64,000 nucleotides of DNA from Candidatus Marinacidobacterales bacterium (GCA_965237685.1 CBDEGF010000002.1:487043-551042); one strand, 5' to 3'; counted from the first letter of the stretch, positions 693 through 52,601 are shown. A program made the numbers and translations. Notes: generated from the letters alone by a model not told the origin.

Positions 693-3107
693 TCAGAACT
701 CCACCGCGACACCGGCGATTCCGACACGGCCGGGAGTGCGAAAGCCACTCTCGAAGTACGTACTGTCGAAGAGATTCTCCATCTTTCCGAACAAACGAAG
801 GCGAGCTCCACTGAGCGCCAGGCGATAGCTGGCGACGAGGTCGGCTTTCACGAAGCTCTCGAACCGGTAGACGCGACTGGCAAAAGTGGACGGGTCGAAA
901 ACGGGCGCAAGGTAGCTGCTCGAGGCGTAGAGGTCGACGCTCAGGAGCACTCTTGGCCCCAGAGCTTGTGTCGCCACCAGTGAGACCTGGTGGCGGGGAA
1001 CGACGAACGCCTGAGTCTGCTCCGGAAGGCTTCCCGGCGGAGGCTCCGCGTCGGTGAACGTATACGACCCGCCGAGCCGAAGTCCAGCGGTCGGGAACGC
1101 CGCATCACCTGTGAGCTCGAGGCCACGGTTCGTGACGCCTTCCGCGGTTCGATAGCCGAAGAAACGCCCGAACGGATCCGTCCCGGGGTCGATACCACCG
1201 GTGGAGTCGAAGACGATGACGTCGGAGAGCCGCGTCCTGAACCACGTTGCCGTGGCGCGCAGCCGATCCTCCGCGAACGATTGCTCGATGCCCACGTCGA
1301 ACGTCAGCGACCGCTCGGGAGGAAGTCTCGGATCGCCGAACACCGAGTAGCCGAAAAAGCTCGAAAAAAACGTACCGTACCGCTCGAAGAGCGATGGCGC
1401 GCGATAGCCTGAGCCGAAATGGGTCCGTAGTTTGGTGCCGGTACCTTCGAAGCCGTAGGAGATCGCGCCATCGCCGGTCAACGCATCGTCGAGCGCCTGG
1501 AGCTCGAGCCCCTGGTAGGGAGCACCGTCCGCCGGAAGGAACGTCGGTCGGTCCAGCGAGAAGAACTGGGCACGAATCGCGCCCGCCAGCTGAAGAGCGC
1601 CGCCGGAAAGGGAGAGCTGATCCTGTGCAAACAGGGTATGACTCCGCTGGGAGACGTCGACGTCCGAGTCATCGGAGGTGACACCGGAACGGGAGCGAGT
1701 CTTGAGGCGCTCATCTTCGAGCTCGTAAGCCACGTCGAGCCGGTGCACGCCCCATGCGTAGTCGAGCCGGCCGTTCAGCGTGTGAATGCGCCCGTCGAAG
1801 TCCTGACGAGACTGGTCGACCGGCTCGAACGGCGTCACACCGGAGGGCCCGTCGAGAAACGTGCGATTGGTGAACAGCCCGTGATAGTTGATGCGATAAC
1901 CGAGCTCACGGCGAGGTTGTTGCTCGAAAGTGATCAGGGTCGAGACGAAGCTCGACTCTCGAAGGTTGTCCGGATCGTTGGCCGACGGAACGTAGTTGGC
2001 CGCGCCAAGGTCGAGCTCCGCGAGCGGCGTCCCCGATTCGTAGCGGGCGAGCTCCTCCGCTGCAAGCGGCACCGCATCGACCACACCCTTTGGCAAATCT
2101 CCAATCGCCCCCGGGCTCTCGTTCAATCCGAGTCGAGAGTCGGCAGCGTAGGTCCGCACGGACAGGCTCGCCGTCGGGCTCAATCGCACGAGGGCACGCC
2201 CCTGAACATTCGTGTTCCGCGCCGGATCGTCGCCGTCCACACCGTCGGAGACATTCAAGTGAGAGAGACCAGCGCTGTACAGGAACCGATCGTCACTCGC
2301 GCCGCCCGACGTGTAGGCGCGTGCGCGAACGAGCCCGAGTCCCCCCACTTCGAGGAGTGCACTTCCCTGCGGAGGTCCTCCCCCGCCCTGGGTCACGATA
2401 TTGATGACACCGCCACCGGCGTTGCTTCCATAGAGCGACGATCCTGTTCCTCGCAGAATCTCTACACGGTCGAGTGCCGTTGCGTGGAGCGATTCCATGA
2501 AGCCCGAAGCGTCTCCTTGTGGAGCAGCGGCATCACGAAAGCGAACGCCGTCGATGACTACCGCGGTATCCTCGTTTCGAAGGCCGCGTATCTTGATGGA
2601 AGTGAAACTCCCGGGCCCCCCGAGCCGCTGAACGCGAAGCCCCGGGACGGTCCTCAACGCCTCCGGAATCGAGTACTCGTTGCGCGCTTCGATCTCTTCG
2701 TTGCTGACAACGGAAAGAGACTTGGCCACCTCCGATGCGATTTGCGCGGTGGCGGAAGCGGTGACGACGACCGACTCCTGATAGGCCGCGAGAGCCAACG
2801 AGAGCGTCAGCTCTTCGACCGCCCCCTCGCCGAGGCGCACTTCGGTCGCTTCGGAGTCGGAGAAACCCCGCGAGCGGGCCGAAACGAGATAGGTGCCCGG
2901 GCCGACGTCGTCGAAACGACAGGTCCCGTCCGAACCGACGCGAGCCTCGAGGCGAAACTGGGCGTCCCTCCGCACGAGCTGCACGACCGCCTGAGGCAGC
3001 CCTGCCCCCTGCGGGTCGACGACGCGAACCCGGACCGAGGCGGGCTCGGCCGCGGCGAGCGTCAGAGAAATCGAGATGAACAGAAGAGTGGCAGCGAAAC
3101 GATGCAT
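693..3107 (-). CDS. btuB: TonB-dependent outer membrane receptor, probably BtuB-like, with N-terminal carboxypeptidase-regulatory-like domain
   Basis: Signal peptide, plug motifs (IRGL...VVIDG, RVEILRG..SSLYG), C-terminal Phe; under cobalamin riboswitch. Confidence 0.85.
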   Translation of the reverse strand: MHRFAATLLFISISLTLAAAEPASVRVRVVDPQGAGLPQAVVQLVRRDAQFRLEARVGSDGTCRFDDVGPGTYLVSARSRGFSDSEATEVRLGEGAVEELTLSLALAAYQESVVVTASATAQIASEVAKSLSVVSNEEIEARNEYSIPEALRTVPGLRVQRLGGPGSFTSIKIRGLRNEDTAVVIDGVRFRDAAAPQGDASGFMESLHATALDRVEILRGTGSSLYGSNAGGGVINIVTQGGGGPPQGSALLEVGGLGLVRARAYTSGGASDDRFLYSAGLSHLNVSDGVDGDDPARNTNVQGRALVRLSPTASLSVRTYAADSRLGLNESPGAIGDLPKGVVDAVPLAAEELARYESGTPLAELDLGAANYVPSANDPDNLRESSFVSTLITFEQQPRRELGYRINYHGLFTNRTFLDGPSGVTPFEPVDQSRQDFDGRIHTLNGRLDYAWGVHRLDVAYELEDERLKTRSRSGVTSDDSDVDVSQRSHTLFAQDQLSLSGGALQLAGAIRAQFFSLDRPTFLPADGAPYQGLELQALDDALTGDGAISYGFEGTGTKLRTHFGSGYRAPSLFERYGTFFSSFFGYSVFGDPRLPPERSLTFDVGIEQSFAEDRLRATATWFRTRLSDVIVFDSTGGIDPGTDPFGRFFGYRTAEGVTNRGLELTGDAAFPTAGLRLGGSYTFTDAEPPPGSLPEQTQAFVVPRHQVSLVATQALGPRVLLSVDLYASSSYLAPVFDPSTFASRVYRFESFVKADLVASYRLALSGARLRLFGKMENLFDSTYFESGFRTPGRVGIAGVAVEF

Positions 3108-3237
3108 GAACGAAACCTCCGAGCCATTTTTCTATGGACTCGCCGAAACGAAGGTCTCGGAGGCAGGTGAGTCAAAGACGGTAGCTGCCTTCGAAACCGG
3201 ACTCTTCCCATCGAAGAGTGCTCCGACTTCTTCGGCT

Positions 3238-3430
3238 CGGGCAGGTTTCCTGACTTACGGATGGAACGCCTGGGCCCGCCTTCCCTGCGCCTTTCGTTGC
3301 AAGTGGCTTGGCTGGCCGCGCCCGCGTGGACGCGACACCCTGGGCTTCGGCTCTCCGATCACAGTGGCGTGGGCCGTTGGGGATTCGAACCCCCATTCCC
3401 TTTTACCCCGTAAAGGGCACCCGAGCCTGT
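3238..3430 (-). ncRNA. Cobalamin (AdoCbl) riboswitch
   Basis: Minus strand reads GGTGC...AAAGGGAATGGGGGTTCGAATCCCC...GCCACTGTGA...GCCACT...GGGAAGGC...AAGTCAGGAAACCTGCC, the conserved B12-element motifs, upstream of btuB. Confidence 0.93.
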
Positions 3431-3487
3431 CCGTCAATCAACGGCAGTATAGAACGGATTGTCGGCCGGGTTCAATCGGAAAGAGAG

Positions 3488-3851: not shown

Positions 3852-5027
3852 ATGGACAAGCTTGGATTGAAATCCCTCGACCTCGAAGGCAAGCGCGTCT
3901 TCGTTCGGGTGGACTTCAACGTTCCGTTGTCGGACGGGCAGGTGAGCGACGACACGCGCGTTCGGGCAGCCCTCCCGACGATCGAATACATCGGCGAAGC
4001 GGGAGGCCGACTCGTCCTGGCGTCGCATCTGGGGAGACCGAAAGGCCAGCCCAGGCCCGAGATGAGCCTGAGGCCAGTGGCCCACCGACTCACCGAGCTT
4101 CTGGGCAAGACCGTCTTCTTTCCCGGCGAGACCGTGCGGGAGGAAATGGAGCAGGACGTGGAGTTGCTCGGCGGCGGCGATGTGCTTCTGCTCGAGAACC
4201 TGCGGTTCGACCCCGGAGAGACGGCCAACGATGCGGGCTTCTCGAAGTCGCTGGCCGATCTGGCCGATATCTATGTCAACGACGCCTTCGGAACCGCGCA
4301 TCGCGCCCATGCCTCGACCGTCGGTATGGTGAAGTATTTCGACCGGGCGGCGGCCGGGTTCCTGATGGAGCGGGAGCTCCACTACCTGGGGATGGCCTTG
4401 TCGTCACCCCCTCGTCCCTTTACGGCACTTCTCGGTGGGGCGAAAGTCTCGGACAAGATTCAGGTTGTGAATTCACTTCTGGAGAAGGTGGACCGGCTCC
4501 TGATCGGAGGCGGCATGGCCTATACCTTTCTGAGAGCAAAGGGAATTGCGACCGGGACCTCGCTCGTGGAGGAAGACAAAATCGGGCTCGCCGGCGAGGT
4601 GCTCGACAAGCACCGCGACAAGCTCGAGCTTCCGGTCGACCACGTCGCGGCAGCAGCTTTCGCCGCGGATGCCGAAACGCGTAACTTGCCCATCGATGAG
4701 ATCCCGGACAGCTGGATGGGACTGGACATCGGACCGGAGACCGTCGAAAGATACGTGGAGCACATCCGAGGCTCGAAAATGGTGCTCTGGAACGGGCCCA
4801 TGGGAGTTTTCGAGATGGAGCCCTTCGCACAGGGCACGGTTCGAGTGGCCGAGGCGCTCGCGGGCAGTGAGGCAACGAGTGTGGTGGGTGGCGGGGATTC
4901 CGTGGCTGCGGTCCGAAAGGCGGGAGTTTCCGATGCCATCACTCATATCTGTACCGGGGGAGGCGCGTCGCTCGAATTTCTCGCCGGTTCCAGACTTCCG
5001 GGAGTCGAGGTATTGACCGATGCGTAG
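3852..5027 (+). CDS. pgk: Phosphoglycerate kinase
   Basis: RVDFNVP, SHLGRP, LLENLRF, NDAFGTAHRAH, GGAKVSDKI, NGPMGVFE, TGGGASLEFL. Confidence 0.98.
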   Translation: MDKLGLKSLDLEGKRVFVRVDFNVPLSDGQVSDDTRVRAALPTIEYIGEAGGRLVLASHLGRPKGQPRPEMSLRPVAHRLTELLGKTVFFPGETVREEMEQDVELLGGGDVLLLENLRFDPGETANDAGFSKSLADLADIYVNDAFGTAHRAHASTVGMVKYFDRAAAGFLMERELHYLGMALSSPPRPFTALLGGAKVSDKIQVVNSLLEKVDRLLIGGGMAYTFLRAKGIATGTSLVEEDKIGLAGEVLDKHRDKLELPVDHVAAAAFAADAETRNLPIDEIPDSWMGLDIGPETVERYVEHIRGSKMVLWNGPMGVFEMEPFAQGTVRVAEALAGSEATSVVGGGDSVAAVRKAGVSDAITHICTGGGASLEFLAGSRLPGVEVLTDA

Positions 5028-6279: not shown

Positions 6280-6364
6280 GCCGAAGTGGTGGAACTGGTA
6301 GACACGTGCGCTTGAGGGGCGTATGGGGCGACCCGTGGGGGTTCGAATCCCCCCTTCGGCACCA
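6280..6364 (+). tRNA. tRNA-Leu(GAG)
   Basis: Acceptor GCCGAAG/CTTCGGC, GGTAGAC D-loop, GAG anticodon, long variable arm, GTTCGAATC, encoded CCA; follows secG. Confidence 0.96.
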
Positions 6365-47211: not shown

Positions 47212-48450
47212 ATGACTGACAGCTCCCTCTCACGCCGACGATTCCTTCAAGCCGTTGGTGCCGCGAGCGTCTGGACACAGGCCTCGGCATCTGCCGTGTC
47301 AGGCGCCGAGGCGCGCTCCGTGACCCTTCAGGCCGCTCGCGAGGTAGGGATATCGAAGTGGGTTCTAGACACTCCCGCGCTGTGTGTCGACCTCGATGCG
47401 CTCGAGGCCAACCTCGCCACGATGCAGCAGACGCTCAGCCGCAACGGGATTGCGAGCCGCCCGCACGTCAAGACCCACAAGTGCCCAGCCATCGCACGGC
47501 TCCAGCTCGCGGGTGGCTCCGTGGGCATCTGCGCTGCCAAGGTGAGCGAGGCAGAGGTGATGTTCGAGCACGGGATCGACCGGATCCTCATGACGACCGC
47601 CAACATGACGCCGTACAAGATCCAACGGGCGATGACGCTACGCAAATGGTGCACGGAATTCGTCCAGGCCACGGACAGTCCGGCCAACGCGCGTGACCTC
47701 TCCGAGGCGGCAGAGGCCGCTGCTCTGGTCGCGGATGTCGTGATCGATGTCGATCCTGGAGGGCATCGCACGGGCATTACGCCGGGCGAGCCGGCCCTCG
47801 ACCTCGCGCGTCTCGTGGACGGGCTCCCCGGCCTGAGGCTGCGCGGCATGCTCTGTTACGACGGCGGCTCTCAACACGTGCAGGGCTTCGAGAACAGGAA
47901 AGCACAGACGCTGGAGCGGCTCGTGCCAGCCGCTGAAACGCTGGTGTCATTTCAACGGTCAGGGTTGAACACCGAGATCTTCAGCGGCGGTGGGACAGGC
48001 ACGTACAACATCGACCACGAGACCGCAGGTCTCACCGACGTGCAGGTTGGGAGCTACGTCTTCATGGATGCCCAGTATCTCGCGATCGGCGGTAAGACGG
48101 ACCCGGAGGTGTATTCCGACTTCGAGCCGTCGCTGACGATTCTGACCACGGTGCTGAACGACCAGTACGAAGGCCGTGTCACGACGGACGCGGGCGCGAA
48201 GGCGTGCACGATCAACCAACCATGGCCCATCGTGAAAGGTGAGACTGGCATGACGTATCGGTCGGGGTCCGATGAGTTCGGATCGATCCGTTACGAAGAC
48301 GCCAGCCGAACGTACCGCGCGGGCGACAAGCTCGAGCTGATCGTCTCCCACTGCGACCCGGTTGTGAACCTCTACAATCAGATGTACGCGATCCGGAACG
48401 ACCGCGTGGAGGCTGTCTGGCCGGTGGCGGCACGCGGGAAGTCCACGTAG
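47212..48450 (+). CDS. DSD1/D-threonine aldolase-like PLP enzyme with Tat signal
   Basis: SRRRFL, RPHVKTHK, SGGGTGT, QVGSYVFMD, HCDPVVN. Confidence 0.9.
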   Translation: MTDSSLSRRRFLQAVGAASVWTQASASAVSGAEARSVTLQAAREVGISKWVLDTPALCVDLDALEANLATMQQTLSRNGIASRPHVKTHKCPAIARLQLAGGSVGICAAKVSEAEVMFEHGIDRILMTTANMTPYKIQRAMTLRKWCTEFVQATDSPANARDLSEAAEAAALVADVVIDVDPGGHRTGITPGEPALDLARLVDGLPGLRLRGMLCYDGGSQHVQGFENRKAQTLERLVPAAETLVSFQRSGLNTEIFSGGGTGTYNIDHETAGLTDVQVGSYVFMDAQYLAIGGKTDPEVYSDFEPSLTILTTVLNDQYEGRVTTDAGAKACTINQPWPIVKGETGMTYRSGSDEFGSIRYEDASRTYRAGDKLELIVSHCDPVVNLYNQMYAIRNDRVEAVWPVAARGKST

Positions 48451-48716
48451 GCCGATCTGGCCCGGTGTTTCGCCCCTTTCAGGCTGGCCTCTCCGTCGCA
48501 GGAGGAGATTGAGATGACGGCAAGTTTCGCGACGGGTGCTGTTCGATGTCCGACTAAGAACCAAAAAAGAAGGTGGGCGATCCGACAGACCGCTCGGTCC
48601 AGATCGGGCCGCTGGCGCGGAAGGACTTGAAAGACGTGTCCTTGCGGCAGCAGTGCGTGACTTAGGTGCTGTTGGGTTCGTAAGCTGAGCGGAGAGATTG
48701 CTCAAGGAGGCCATCG

Positions 48717-49259
48717 ATGCGCTCAAAGAAGGCAGAACTCGAAGACGTTGTGAAACAGTTCGAAGCATGGCGGGCGAAGCCACACGGACGGCTGATCCCG
48801 GAGGAGTTGTGGAAAGCGGCGCTGGGGTTGCTCGATCGGTATGCGCCGAGCACGATCTGCAGTCATCTCCGAGTCAATGCGGCGCGATTCAAACAGGTCC
48901 GAGAGAGTGGAGGGGCCGTTGTGGGCGAGAAGCGTTTCAAGGGGCACGGGCGAACGGGTGCTACGGGTCGGTCCCCGCGCACAGTACAGGATCGGAGCGC
49001 GGCGGAGCGGGTCACGGCGTTAGCTCCAAGTGGCAACGCGTTCGTCGAGCTGCCGCAGTTCGGCATGGGCTTAGGGGGCGGCATGATGACACCGCCGCTC
49101 GGCGAGGTTCAGCATGGAGCGAGCAGATGCCGTCTGACGGTGGAGAGCGCAGCGGGGAGCCTCACGGTCGTGACGGCGAGCGGCGAGGGTGAGAATGAGT
49201 TGGTCGAAGCCGTGTGTCGTTTCGTGCTCGGCGCGCTGGAAGGCAGCTCCCGAGCATGA
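48717..49259 (+). CDS. IS66 TnpA-like protein
   Basis: FEAWR...IPEELWKAA, AFVEL; ATGA overlap with tnpB. Confidence 0.75.
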   Translation: MRSKKAELEDVVKQFEAWRAKPHGRLIPEELWKAALGLLDRYAPSTICSHLRVNAARFKQVRESGGAVVGEKRFKGHGRTGATGRSPRTVQDRSAAERVTALAPSGNAFVELPQFGMGLGGGMMTPPLGEVQHGASRCRLTVESAAGSLTVVTASGEGENELVEAVCRFVLGALEGSSRA

Positions 49260-49609
49260 TCCAGCTCGTTCCCCAGCTGAAGGTGCTGGTTGCCTGCGAG
49301 CCCGTCGATTTCCGCAAGGGCATCGATTCTTTGGCTTGTGTGTGCCGGCAACAGTTCCAGCTCGACCCATTCCTCGGAACGCTATTCGTTTTCCGCAACC
49401 GTTCAGGCACGGCCCTCAAACTATTGGTCTACGACGGCCAGGGCTTTTGGTTGTGCCAGAAGCGTTTCTCGAAGGGGCGCCTGCAGTGGTGGCCGCGTCA
49501 GACGACGGATGGCGTTGCGGCGCTACCCGCCGAGCAGTTGGCGGTGCTTATCTACAACGGACTTCCGCTGCGAGCGGGGATGGCCGAGCCGTGGCGGCGG
49601 GTCGGTTGA
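49256..49609 (+). CDS. tnpB: IS66 accessory protein TnpB
   Basis: EPVDFRKGIDSL, LFVFRNR, LVYDGQGFWLCQKRFSKGR. Confidence 0.93.
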   Translation: MIQLVPQLKVLVACEPVDFRKGIDSLACVCRQQFQLDPFLGTLFVFRNRSGTALKLLVYDGQGFWLCQKRFSKGRLQWWPRQTTDGVAALPAEQLAVLIYNGLPLRAGMAEPWRRVG

Positions 49610-51101
49610 GCCTTTCCAACGTCTTCTGGTAGCTCCAAGGCAGCCACGACTCGGGTGCTGCTCTAGCGTCTCGAGCGTGCATGGAGATGTTCGTCAGATA
49701 GTGCACCGGGTCGACACCGTTTTTTACCGCGGTGCGGATCATGCTCAGGAGCACGTCGCCCACGTCGGCGCCTGCCTGGGTCTTGAAGAAGAGCGAGTTC
49801 TTGCGATGCCGTTGTGAGGGCTTCAGCTCCTGCTCGACCTCGTTGTTGTCGAGGGGCACGCCCGGCACTTCGCGGAAGCGGGTTAGCCCTTGCCAGTGAT
49901 TTTTGACGTAGGAAAAGGCTTTTCCAAGGCGGCTGTTGGGCTCCACCACGCGCTCGCGGAACTGCTTTTCGATCCACTCGTAGAGCGCATCCATCACCGG
50001 CCGGCTGTGTTGCTGGTGATATGCAAGCCGCGCATCGGGGGTCATGTCGCGCGTTTCGTCGTCGTTGCGGTAGATGGTCGCGATGTCCTCGAGCACCCGC
50101 TCGCAGTGTTCGGGGAAGGCTGGCTCGGCCTCGAAGAAGTAGCGGCGTGCGTGCACCATGCACTTGGCGGTAATCCGTCGCGGCGAGCGCGGTGCCATCG
50201 AGGAGGCGTCGGCCATATGGATGACATCGCTCTCCTGAACGGTGCGCTGATTCAGGAGCCGGTCCATGTTTTCGCCCGCATGCCGTCGTCCGCTCGCGTA
50301 CAGGATGATCGGAGCAAGCGTGGCGTCCAAGCCGCGGGCAACAATGCCCGTGGTGAAGATGCCCGTGCGCTCGCCTTTGCCTTGAGTCAAGGTCTCGTTC
50401 TCCGCCATCAACGTGAGGATCCGTGCGCCGGTGTCGTCACTGTGAACCAGCGGCCGGTTCGCGGCTATCGTCTCCATGTGGCGGAAGACCGGGAACACGG
50501 CATTCGCCATCGCTTCGACCCGCTCGAACTGCGTGGAGGCGGCAAACGGAACCCCCGCCCACTTTTGCCACTGCGCCAGGCGGTGGTGGGGCATGCCCAT
50601 GGCGTAGCGCAACACCGAAACGACCGCGTCCACACTCGGATGGTACTTGCTCGCCCAGGCCTGAGACGGAAGTGGCGCTGTGAACGTCTTCTGGCAACTT
50701 GCGCATCGCAGCATCTGGCGCTCGTACACCGTCGCCTGGATCGGCGGCTGAGCCTTCAGCTCCACATCCTTGTTCGCCGCATGGGTGTCGTAGAGCTTGC
50801 CCCGGCACAGTGGCTCGGGGCAGGGGCCGCTCGCCTTCAGCTCGGGATGCGAAACCGCTACGTGCTCGGCACCAGGGTAGTCCTTGGCCCCGTTGCGCCC
50901 GTGGCCCTTGTTCTTCCCTTTCCCCTTTGCCTTCGTGCGTTTCGCGCGACGTTCCGTTGTCGCCATGCCAGCGCCTCGACGATGGCGACATCGCAGCAGA
51001 TGACGCACCGCCTCGAGCAGCACCGGACACGCATCCTCGGGAATCTCCCCTTTCGACAGCCGCTCTTCCAGGCGCAGGAGCTCGGCCCGCTCGACCTTCA
51101 T
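49548..51101 (-). CDS. tnpC: IS66 TnpC transposase
   Basis: GHGRNGA, Zn-ribbon CPEPLC..CASC, HSDDT, MADAS, CMVHARR, PLDNNEVE, RKNSLF, WLPW. Confidence 0.92.
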   Translation of the reverse strand: MKVERAELLRLEERLSKGEIPEDACPVLLEAVRHLLRCRHRRGAGMATTERRAKRTKAKGKGKNKGHGRNGAKDYPGAEHVAVSHPELKASGPCPEPLCRGKLYDTHAANKDVELKAQPPIQATVYERQMLRCASCQKTFTAPLPSQAWASKYHPSVDAVVSVLRYAMGMPHHRLAQWQKWAGVPFAASTQFERVEAMANAVFPVFRHMETIAANRPLVHSDDTGARILTLMAENETLTQGKGERTGIFTTGIVARGLDATLAPIILYASGRRHAGENMDRLLNQRTVQESDVIHMADASSMAPRSPRRITAKCMVHARRYFFEAEPAFPEHCERVLEDIATIYRNDDETRDMTPDARLAYHQQHSRPVMDALYEWIEKQFRERVVEPNSRLGKAFSYVKNHWQGLTRFREVPGVPLDNNEVEQELKPSQRHRKNSLFFKTQAGADVGDVLLSMIRTAVKNGVDPVHYLTNISMHARDARAAPESWLPWSYQKTLERLNRPAATARPSPLAAEVRCR

Positions 51102-52012
51102 CGCGAAACGCCGAGCTCTCGGCGAAACTCACGCACCAGCGGATACACCAAGCATGTTTTCACCGCTTCGGCTTTTCTCTTGTGCCGGTCCATCCGGCCC
51201 CGGCCCGAAGTCACTCCCACCTCCACCCAGTTCGCTGCCAGATAGCACGTCCCCTCGTAACGCTCCCTCTCCACAAACGTCTCGAGCAACACCGGCCTCA
51301 CCCCGTAGGCTTCCTCCCAGTCATCGACCACCACTCGCGCTGCCAACGACAGCACGTGACTCGCGAGGCCTTTGATGGAAAGCCACGGCAGGATCAGGAA
51401 CCGACTGTTGTTGACCACCCGGGGAAGGTTCTTCTGCCGCGTTGCGTCATCCCAACCGATGAAGCCGTCACGCGCCTGAAGCCACCGCGCCGCCGAGGAG
51501 AACTGCACGCACCCACAGAGCTCCCGCCGAGGATTCGACATCCAGACCAAGTACCGCAGGTGCGCGCCAAAGGCCACCTTGTGGCCCAGGTAGTGGTAAC
51601 GCGCGACCAGTTCCCTCCATAGCGCTCGCTCCTCAGCGTTCGCCACCAAGCCCAGCATCACCGGAGCGACGTCCGATAGCTTGCCCTCACGCCGTGGCCG
51701 CTCGCGACCAGCCTTCGTGTAGTGGATGCTCGTCGGTCCGCGGCGCCGCTGCTCGTGACGCGGGGGCAACGTCACCAGCCCCTTCGCTTCGACAACCTCC
51801 AGGTACTCGTAGCATTCCCGGGTCTTGAGATTGCCGTTCCGACGAACCCACCCCAGGCCCTCACAGATCGTGCGCGCCAGCTCGTGCCGGGACAGACCAC
51901 ACGTGGCGATGATCTCCGTCAGCACGCTCCATTCCTCGTCGGTCACGGTCGTGCCGCAAAAGGTGGGTCGCTTGGCTGCGGTGTCGAGTGCAGCGTTTCC
52001 TGCCTGGGTCAC
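51098..52012 (-). CDS. DUF4338 (DruA-like) domain protein
   Basis: YHYLG, LRYLV, RDGFIGW, NNSRFLILPW, LASHVL, LLETFVE, GTCYLAANW, GRGRMD. Confidence 0.88.
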   Translation of the reverse strand: MTQAGNAALDTAAKRPTFCGTTVTDEEWSVLTEIIATCGLSRHELARTICEGLGWVRRNGNLKTRECYEYLEVVEAKGLVTLPPRHEQRRRGPTSIHYTKAGRERPRREGKLSDVAPVMLGLVANAEERALWRELVARYHYLGHKVAFGAHLRYLVWMSNPRRELCGCVQFSSAARWLQARDGFIGWDDATRQKNLPRVVNNSRFLILPWLSIKGLASHVLSLAARVVVDDWEEAYGVRPVLLETFVERERYEGTCYLAANWVEVGVTSGRGRMDRHKRKAEAVKTCLVYPLVREFRRELGVSR

Positions 52013-52030
52013 TGTTTTCCTCCCAGCCTG

Positions 52031-52059
52031 AGGTTACACAGTCAGCCAGCGTTTGTCCA
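52031..52059 (-). promoter_or_regulatory. Sigma70-like promoter inside IS end for DUF4338-tnpC
   Basis: TGGACA-17 nt-TAACCT, then GGAGG RBS and GTG 52012. Confidence 0.5.
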
Positions 52060-52169
52060 GTCCTTTTTTCCCTCTCTCTCTGCCCGCGAGAAAAACGACA
52101 CACCCGGCGTTCAGCTTACCGAATCGCCCCCACGTTCTCACGCACTACTACCGCAAGGACACGAAAGAC

Positions 52170-52601
52170 AACCTGGTCCGTCAGGTTTCCGAGAGCGTCG
52201 CCGCGGGCGCCGAGGTGGTGTTTCGCGGTGAGGCTCCCGACGGCCCGGGCTTGTTCTATCCGGTGTCGGCCATCACGAAAGTGACCGAGGAGATGCCCGC
52301 CTATAGCGAAGAGCTCTTCGGACCGGCCGCGGTGCTCCTGCCGTTCGACGACGAGGATCGCGCGGTTTCGGTAGCCAACGACACCTCGTACGGGCTCGGC
52401 GCGAGCCTGTGGACGAGCGACCGCTCCCGCGCCGAGCGACTGATCCCGCGCATCGAGGCGGGCGCGGTCTTCATCAACGGTCTCGTGAAATCGGATCCAA
52501 GGATCCCGTTCGGGGGGATCAAGGAGTCCGGTTTCGGGCGCGAGGTCGCCCACGAAGGCCTGAGGGAGTTCGTGAACCGCAAGACGGTCTGGATCAAGTG
52601 A
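52170..52601 (+). pseudogene. Aldehyde dehydrogenase (succinate-semialdehyde type) C-terminal fragment
   Basis: EELFGP, ANDTSYGLGASLWT, PFGGIKESGFGRE. Confidence 0.85.

Follow-up and report, generated by a model that had tools for sequence, protein, structure and literature searches.

The DNA examined here is a 64,000-nt stretch of the genome of Candidatus Marinacidobacterales bacterium (GCA_965237685.1, CBDEGF010000002.1:487043-551042), referred to throughout as the window, which holds a single copy of an intact insertion sequence (IS) of the IS66 family at positions 48636-52162 (3,527 bp, ± ~1 nt). The element carries a gene for a DUF4338 protein, and this gene was found to be a core, selected part of the element that is coupled to its transposase gene; elsewhere, the same domain is repeatedly joined to DDE transposases. 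For comparison, the genome_contigs collection was scanned with an alignment of DUF4338 homologues; 509 stretches matched, of which 485 code for a relative; the 80 best were retained as loci (L numbers below), against which the four proteins of the window element were compared by tblastn.

Four uninterrupted open reading frames (ORFs) form two convergent operons within the element. From the left end, a tnpA-like ORF of 180 amino acids (aa; 48717-49259, + strand) and the gene for the 131-aa IS66 accessory protein TnpB (49214-49609, +; TnpB_IS66 PF05717, E = 1.5e-28; NF033819, 94.2 bits, cutoff 50) run inward; from the right end, the gene for the 304-aa DUF4338 protein (51098-52012, − strand; PF14236 'DruA'/DUF4338, E = 1.4e-46) and tnpC, encoding the 517-aa IS66 DDE transposase (49548-51101, −; DDE_Tnp_IS66 PF03050, E = 1.7e-48; NF033517, 220.6 bits against a cutoff of 180), run toward them. 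The tnpB and tnpC genes overlap tail to tail by 62 nt (49548-49609), the ATGA at 51098-51101 is common to the DUF4338 stop and the tnpC start, and the DUF4338 gene is translationally coupled to the transposase gene. An earlier annotation of the window, made by a model from the sequence alone (the first-pass annotation), had described the four intact ORFs, their convergence, both overlaps, and the IS66 affiliation; all of these were borne out, the layout by ORF calls together with Pfam or NCBIfam matches for three of the genes, and the affiliation by the two Pfam and two NCBIfam IS66 models cited above.

In TnpC, residues D222, D298, E423, C314, and H317 are invariant in all 13 aligned IS66 transposases. 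The tnpA-like ORF matched no Pfam or NCBIfam family, even at E = 10, and has a counterpart at the same position in L001, L004, and L011; its neighbours in Atlas were unnamed or labelled 'transposase family', with helix-turn-helix families appearing only below a score of 0.9, as leads. Relative to L001, the ratio of nonsynonymous to synonymous substitution rates (dN/dS) was 0.22 for both DUF4338 and tnpB and 0.25 for tnpC, values that reflect purifying selection, and 0.39 for the tnpA-like ORF; DUF4338 was the best conserved of the four proteins (74% identity). Upstream of the DUF4338 gene lies a promoter-like block, TGGACA-N17-TAACCT followed by GGGAGG (52019-52059, −), which is kept in all four loci having the region (the window, L001, L004, and L011); the first-pass annotation had read a -35/-10 match inside the right end. 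A sigma-70 consensus promoter scan of 48500-52300 returned 0 sites, and the conserved block did not pass it. An Rfam scan gave no match within the element.

A repeat search of the window returned a 26-nt terminal inverted repeat with 24 of 26 positions matching (48635-48660 and 52138-52163), whose left arm within the element starts GTGTCCTTGCGG (48636-48660, +) and whose right arm occupies 52138-52162 (−). The same terminal sequence is present at both ends of L001, as a 38-nt inverted repeat (92%), and in a diverged version at the ends of L011, from Hyphomicrobiales (26 nt, 85%); GTGTCC is shared by the six ends of these three elements. Identical copies of the 7-mer GAAAGAC abut the repeats on either side (48629-48635 and 52163-52169, both given on the + strand) and represent the target duplication; this 7-mer occurs 14 times in the window, both strands counted. 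The ends were set at 48636 and 52162 because of the inverted repeats, the GAAAGAC repeat, and an aldehyde-dehydrogenase reading frame that continues across the element. The first-pass annotation had placed them instead at 48680 and 52119 (3,440 bp), at inverted GTAAGCTGA motifs that are indeed present (48680-48688, +; 52111-52119, −, found as the complement on the + strand; both located by sequence search) but are subterminal, the true ends being 43-44 nt outside them on each side. As termini these 9-mers were rejected, since the 8-bp duplication sought beside them is absent (flanks ..TTGGGTTC and CGAATCGC..), and it was this absence that moved the search outward to the 26-nt repeat. On the tnpA side, GTAAGCTGA is retained in L001, where the spacing from the terminal repeat to GTAAGCTGAGCG is the same as in the window, and in L004 as GTAAACTGA; it was not found on the DUF4338 side of L001. 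The possibility that the outer repeat is an inverted copy of aldehyde-dehydrogenase sequence, produced by rearrangement, was also rejected, because the ends of L001 and L011 bear the same repeat.

The target of the insertion was an aldehyde-dehydrogenase remnant (short left piece 48558-48635 and 3′ part 52163-52601, +), which the element splits in frame, with identical codon phase on both sides; the right flank matches Pfam Aldedh at positions 314-461 and the left flank at positions 296-315, the latter weakly (E = 0.19, 26 residues only). The remnant is 5′-truncated, covering Pfam positions ~296-461 of 461 (48451-48635 plus 52163-52601), with an in-frame stop just 5′ of the short left piece, and the D-serine-dehydratase-like gene upstream ends at 48450; about two thirds of the aldehyde-dehydrogenase gene must have been lost in an earlier deletion or rearrangement. 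The target duplication is unreadable in L001 (fold-back), L011 (a 4.1-kb contig), and L004 (decayed ends). Immediately outside the element end, the L001 contig repeats 49 nt of its flank as a perfect inverted copy (180-228 and 4102-4150), which looks like an assembly fold-back.

Canonical IS66 elements carry tnpA, tnpB, and tnpC in co-directional order, with inverted repeats starting GTAA and an 8-bp target duplication. The window element resembles them in that its TnpC and TnpB pass the curated models, its small upstream ORF overlaps tnpB, and it has inverted repeats and a short duplication; it departs from them in having tnpC transcribed toward tnpB from the other strand, an additional fourth gene (DUF4338) placed before tnpC and coupled to it, GTGTCC instead of GTAA at its ends, and a duplication of 7 bp instead of 8 bp. 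It was accordingly filed as a variant IS66 subgroup, since the protein models matched and the gene order, the GTAA ends, and the 8-bp duplication did not. The order in which DUF4338 and tnpC converge on tnpA and tnpB recurs in 4 of the 80 loci (L001, L003, L004, and L011); the contig of L003 stops before the tnpA end, L003 and L004 both show frame breaks, and the ends of L004 are decayed. Their TnpC proteins are between 35% (L011) and 72% (a segment of L004) identical to that of the window, and the tnpB/tnpC junctions comprise an 8-nt gap (L003) and overlaps of 8, 22, 58, and 62 nt. The convergent layout is real and recurrent, and it marks a distinct IS66 subgroup.

An inversion artefact, in which the tnpC segment of a co-directional IS66 was flipped by misassembly or a single recombination, would agree with the canonical co-directional order and with the existence of a co-directional relative that also carries DUF4338 (L044), but it is contradicted by the same layout and junction in four other loci from different assemblies and phyla, by inverted repeats, a duplication, and four ORFs that are all intact, and by a protein 99% identical to the window DUF4338 that represents 67 member sequences elsewhere; we consider it extremely improbable. 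Many close DUF4338 homologues lie on contigs of 3-4.8 kb. The co-directional relative (L044, 2-2819) has the order tnpB, DUF4338, tnpC and begins inside tnpB, so that no tnpA is in view; it may represent a step between the canonical IS66 order and the convergent one.

To assess the association with transposases beyond this subgroup, the 80 loci were dereplicated at 90% identity to 54, and neighbouring and extended ORFs were scanned. In 41 of the 54, DUF4338 either has a transposase gene as its immediate same-strand neighbour or shares an ORF with one. IS66 TnpC lay downstream of DUF4338 in 6 loci (L001-L004, L011, and L023) and upstream in 14, in one of which (L068) the two are in frame; an ISKra4 transposase lay downstream in 6, a transposase of the DDE_Tnp_1_assoc type downstream in 6 (RefSeq names one relative 'ISAs1 family'), and an IS1634 transposase downstream in 1; the remainder were IS4-family transposases fused to DUF4338 in one ORF (6 loci) and IS4/Tn5-like transposases upstream (2 loci). 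A search among longer proteins recovered 886 homologues at E ≤ 1e-3; when the best 120 were classified by precomputed Pfam domains, 119 proved to be transposase fusions, specifically with Tn5-like PF14706 with or without PF02281 (39), PF07592 of the ISAzo13 type (24), PF03050 of IS66 (23), PF01609 (22), and an IS630-type set including PF13358 (11), and the single remaining protein carried PF14236 alone. Re-scanning of eight of these 120 placed DUF4338 at the N-terminus in ISAzo13, IS4, IS630-type, and Tn5-like fusions and at the C-terminus in three IS66 fusions; another (P0242) contained the DruA domain only. Among 1.84 billion cluster representatives searched by profile, 13,948 matched at E ≤ 1e-3, of which 2,555 reached E ≤ 1e-30, and 33 of the best 150 have lengths of 550 aa or more.

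Within single genomes, the repeated mobile unit consists of the DUF4338 gene and a transposase alone, bounded by 8- or 9-bp duplications. The Accumulibacter unit is 2,716 bp long and ≥99.9% identical in 7 comparisons, and one genome contributed 20 of the 80 loci; the Vicinamibacterales unit is ~2.83 kb (100% and 98.8% identity in two comparisons), and the Desulfospira unit 2,777 bp (≥99.9% identical). The Accumulibacter IS66-type element (L051-L075, e.g., L051 4183-6898) contains only tnpC followed by DUF4338 and has ends reading GTAAGTATTCGG..; its copies show GTAAG ends, with clean 8-bp duplications in the 3 copies examined. Multi-copy minimal units of other types pair DUF4338 with an ISKra4 transposase (L015, L016, and L018, 5753-8575) or with an ISAs1-like transposase (L040-L042, 5816-8592), both with 9-bp duplications.

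Maximum-likelihood analysis of 50 DUF4338 proteins (L003, L004, L013, L017, L025, and L071 were excluded as broken or partial) revealed clustering by partner family, the eight partner labels requiring 18 changes on the tree against a mean of 32.2 when shuffled, with none of 200 shuffles as low. The window protein grouped with L001 and L002 (support 100), next to an ISKra4-linked clade (82), and the IS66 group with tnpC upstream of DUF4338 formed a separate clade (98). Because IS66-linked DUF4338 proteins thus fall into separate clades, the link to IS66 arose or was rearranged more than once. Insertion sequences of several families have relatives of the window gene among their core genes.

The first-pass annotation had offered a different view, in which DUF4338 is anti-restriction or mobile-defence cargo that serves the host or replicon and is merely co-expressed with the transposase. 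Druantia type I systems have druB-druE beside DruA, including the large DruE helicase. The window protein shares Pfam PF14236/DUF4338 with DruA, for which Pfam named the family, and close homologues are labelled 'Druantia anti-phage system protein DruA' by NCBI; however, the PADLOC DruA models (407 and 675 positions) match only residues 145-209 of the 304-aa window protein (65 residues; PDLC00002, 26.7 bits), its neighbours are transposition genes, and no druB-E gene was found, as none of the 16 ORFs around the element matched any PADLOC model and the longest ORF in the window has 943 aa. The protein of the element is not part of a Druantia system. Phages offered no relatives either, in a tblastn search of 50,697 phage records, and in a plasmid collection 2 records carried one. 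The cargo view also gains from Mom of phage Mu, itself an anti-restriction enzyme according to passages of PMC13219725, from the listing of DUF4338 among the variable N-terminal domains of DndF in part of PMC10853773, and from one locus (L005, 4084-7929) in which a DUF4338 homologue lies between an hsdM-like ORF with an HsdM N-domain and an hsdS-like ORF with a type I specificity domain, with no transposase adjoining. This last protein is, in the tree, almost indistinguishable from ISKra4-linked copies of related genomes, and may be a stranded copy or a genuine restriction-modification association. Against cargo stand the near-universal transposase fusions among the best longer homologues, multi-copy units that hold only DUF4338 and a transposase, the coexistence of 20 loci in one genome, the adjacent and co-directional or fused position of transposase-linked copies, and a tree that tracks the partner transposase. 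We therefore regard a passenger role as improbable.

The nature of the protein was approached by structure prediction. An alignment of 50 sequences (A3) gave an AlphaFold2 model with a mean predicted local distance difference test score (pLDDT) of 91.8 and a predicted template-modelling score (pTM) of 0.72, comprising three helices and a short hairpin that form an N-terminal domain (~residues 20-80), a basic linker, and a GNAT core (~108-300); judged by secondary structure, the N-terminal domain is probably a winged helix. DUF4338 has already been termed a GNAT in a passage of PMC10853773. Foldseek against 350,542 PDB chains ranked phage Mu Mom first (8bv8_B; E = 1.1e-5; TM-score 0.60, target-normalised; root-mean-square deviation 4.8 over 198 columns; 18% identity), and of the 107 matches at E ≤ 1e-3, all those among the matches listed were GNAT-fold acyltransferases. 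At the profile level, Pfam Mom (PF25680) was the only family besides DruA to recur, matching 42 of the 50 relatives at E ≤ 0.1 (lowest E = 7.1e-8); none of the 50 was matched by an acetyltransferase Pfam family. A DUF4338 profile aligned by hhalign to an alignment of 24 Mom homologues at E = 5e-4 over 153 columns; against Mu Mom alone, a narrow alignment gave E = 0.16 over 25 columns and a wider one E = 0.016, and a sequence-profile search of PDB with alignment A2 gave no match. The predicted protein thus combines a helix-rich N-terminal domain with a GNAT fold, and its closest characterised relative by profile and structure is Mu Mom, in keeping with the resemblance to Mom-like GNAT proteins suggested by the first-pass annotation.

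That suggestion had rested on the motifs HYL and G.CY.AANW..VG, both of which now align with Mom. With Mom residues numbered as in PMC13219725, 10 above the Mu coding sequence (an offset inferred from W48, H58/Y59, R111, S124, D149, R151, and Y159), H58/Y59 correspond to H140/Y141 of the window protein (kept in 50 and 46 of 50 relatives, respectively), S124 to S218 (50/50), D149 to D/E248 (49/50), and Y159 to Y257 (50/50), and the loop before S218 has the family consensus K-N-L-A-S, resembling R-N-S-E-S of Mom ([KR]-N-x-x-S). Passages of PMC13219725 describe H58, Y59, R111, S124, D149, R151, and Y159 as important or essential in Mom, S124 being essential, and describe Mom as an enzyme that binds charged tRNA and transfers glycine from Gly-tRNA onto N6 of adenine in double-stranded DNA. 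Unlike Mom, the window protein has an extra N-terminal helical domain of ~80 residues and is encoded by insertion sequences rather than phages. A precedent for linking a Mom-type enzyme to a nuclease comes from jumbo phages, in which, according to part of PMC7824862, Mom-family domains are fused to nucleases of the restriction-endonuclease fold; several BFVD matches of the DUF4338 model, phage proteins of ~500-560 aa named 'homing endonuclease' or 'endonuclease-like', agree with such fusions. In each case a GNAT of the Mom type is physically tied to a DNA-cleaving enzyme; the partner in the window is a DDE transposase and the carrier an insertion sequence, so the modification-restriction logic applies by analogy only.

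A Mom-like gene coupled to a transposase, together with the same pairing in several other families, points to an undescribed helper role in transposition. On balance, DUF4338 is probably a core gene that acts with the transposase rather than defence cargo, as judged from sequence and predicted structure. In the mechanism we propose, the DUF4338 protein would be an active acyl- or aminoacyltransferase working with the DDE transposase in the transposition complex; its putative winged helix would replace the DNA-binding insertion of Mom and bring the protein to DNA. The preferred chemistry would be a Mom-like acylation of a DNA base, at the element ends or the target, a mark that would tell the transposase which DNA to cut or spare; roughly one third of the weight of the helper reading would fall on this base acylation. 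Convergent transcription across the overlapping 3′ ends of tnpB and tnpC would probably balance the expression of the two genes, and antisense control may further result from the overlap between the operons. The alternatives, in falling order of probability, are a protein acetyltransferase, the defence or anti-restriction cargo discussed above, a tRNA-directed toxin-like module, and the inversion artefact.

Several observations weigh against a Mom-like helper. Only five places showed the convergent subgroup, and its duplication, as read in the window, is 7 bp rather than the 8 bp of other IS66-type copies (Accumulibacter). No transposase was found at 13 of the 54 dereplicated loci, of which 8 (L009, L013, L017, L019, L032, L033, L038, and L043) are short contigs or stop shortly beyond the gene; L005 and L012 are also among the 13. 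On Pfam Mom the window protein reaches 13.1 bits, below the gathering cutoff of 27.1, and the probability of the hhalign match between the DUF4338 profile and the Mom homologues was only 31%. The essential R111 and R151 of Mom have no aligned arginine, with R204 (50/50) and R251 (32/50) nearby, and the essential helix-turn-helix-like insertion (~175-209) faces a gap in the DUF4338 profile. The Foldseek margin is small, Mom at 1.1e-5 being followed by AAC(6')-Ib at 1.9e-5 with other GNATs close behind, and an earlier model (20 close sequences, pLDDT 75) matched generic GNATs, with Mom absent among the matches listed.

These last points bear on the alternative that DUF4338 is an ordinary acetyl-coenzyme A (CoA)-dependent GNAT that adjusts transposition by acetylating the transposase, TnpB, or a nucleoid protein of the host, DNA not being its substrate. 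AAC(6')-Ib, PaiA, SpeG, and RimI have Foldseek scores nearly equal to that of Mom and were best with the first model, and the window protein carries G-x-A at the position of the CoA-binding loop, its S-I-K-G-L-A fitting the classical xxxGxA pattern. The relatives as a group tell otherwise, with Mom recurring in 42 of 50 and acetyltransferase families in 0, a consensus loop like that of Mom, and glycine in 10 of 50 only; an acetyltransferase acting on protein is unlikely, yet heads the alternatives. A toxin-like module, in which the GNAT would acetylate aminoacyl-tRNA in the manner of AtaT, TacT, and KacT and act by addiction or growth arrest, takes some encouragement from AtaT and KacT among the Foldseek matches and from the binding of charged tRNA by Mom. 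Their ranks (25 and 36) are well below that of Mom, though, and the element contains no antitoxin-like small ORF, the domain is fused to full-length transposases, and 20 loci coexist in one genome, all of which make this module very unlikely.

Extending the helper reading leads to a more speculative proposal, which we advance tentatively and consider doubtful as a whole: DUF4338 proteins would be transposase-coupled nucleic-acid acylating enzymes, Mom-like and possibly aminoacyl-tRNA-dependent, through which at least seven IS families (IS66, ISKra4, ISAs1-like, IS1634, IS4/Tn5-like, ISAzo13, and IS630-type) write a covalent DNA mark that controls where or when their own transposase cuts, and Druantia DruA would be a defence offshoot of the same enzyme. 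If so, a family with 13,948 cluster representatives, known only as the 'DUF4338/DruA' defence protein, would gain a DDE-transposase context and DruA a testable function; DUF4338 would be the second GNAT, after Mom, possibly acting on DNA, and transposition may have a new layer of control. At the level of titles, abstracts, and some passages, the literature yielded no link between DUF4338 and insertion sequences. The locus itself defines a convergent IS66 subgroup with unusual ends.

Public annotation names IS-borne homologues 'Druantia anti-phage system protein DruA' (P0005 and P0006) and the fusions plainly 'IS4 family' or 'ISAs1 family transposase' (P0352; L083 2420-3754). Both names hide the association between DUF4338 and transposases, and can bias surveys both of defence systems and of insertion sequences. 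One fusion is unexplained: in Geomonas edaphica (L012, 5932-7872), DUF4338 and a glutamine cyclotransferase domain share a 647-aa ORF. Elsewhere in the window, and unrelated to the element, are a cobalamin riboswitch (3223-3439, −; 86.1 bits) upstream of an 804-aa ORF (693-3107, −) and a tRNA gene (6280-6361, +).

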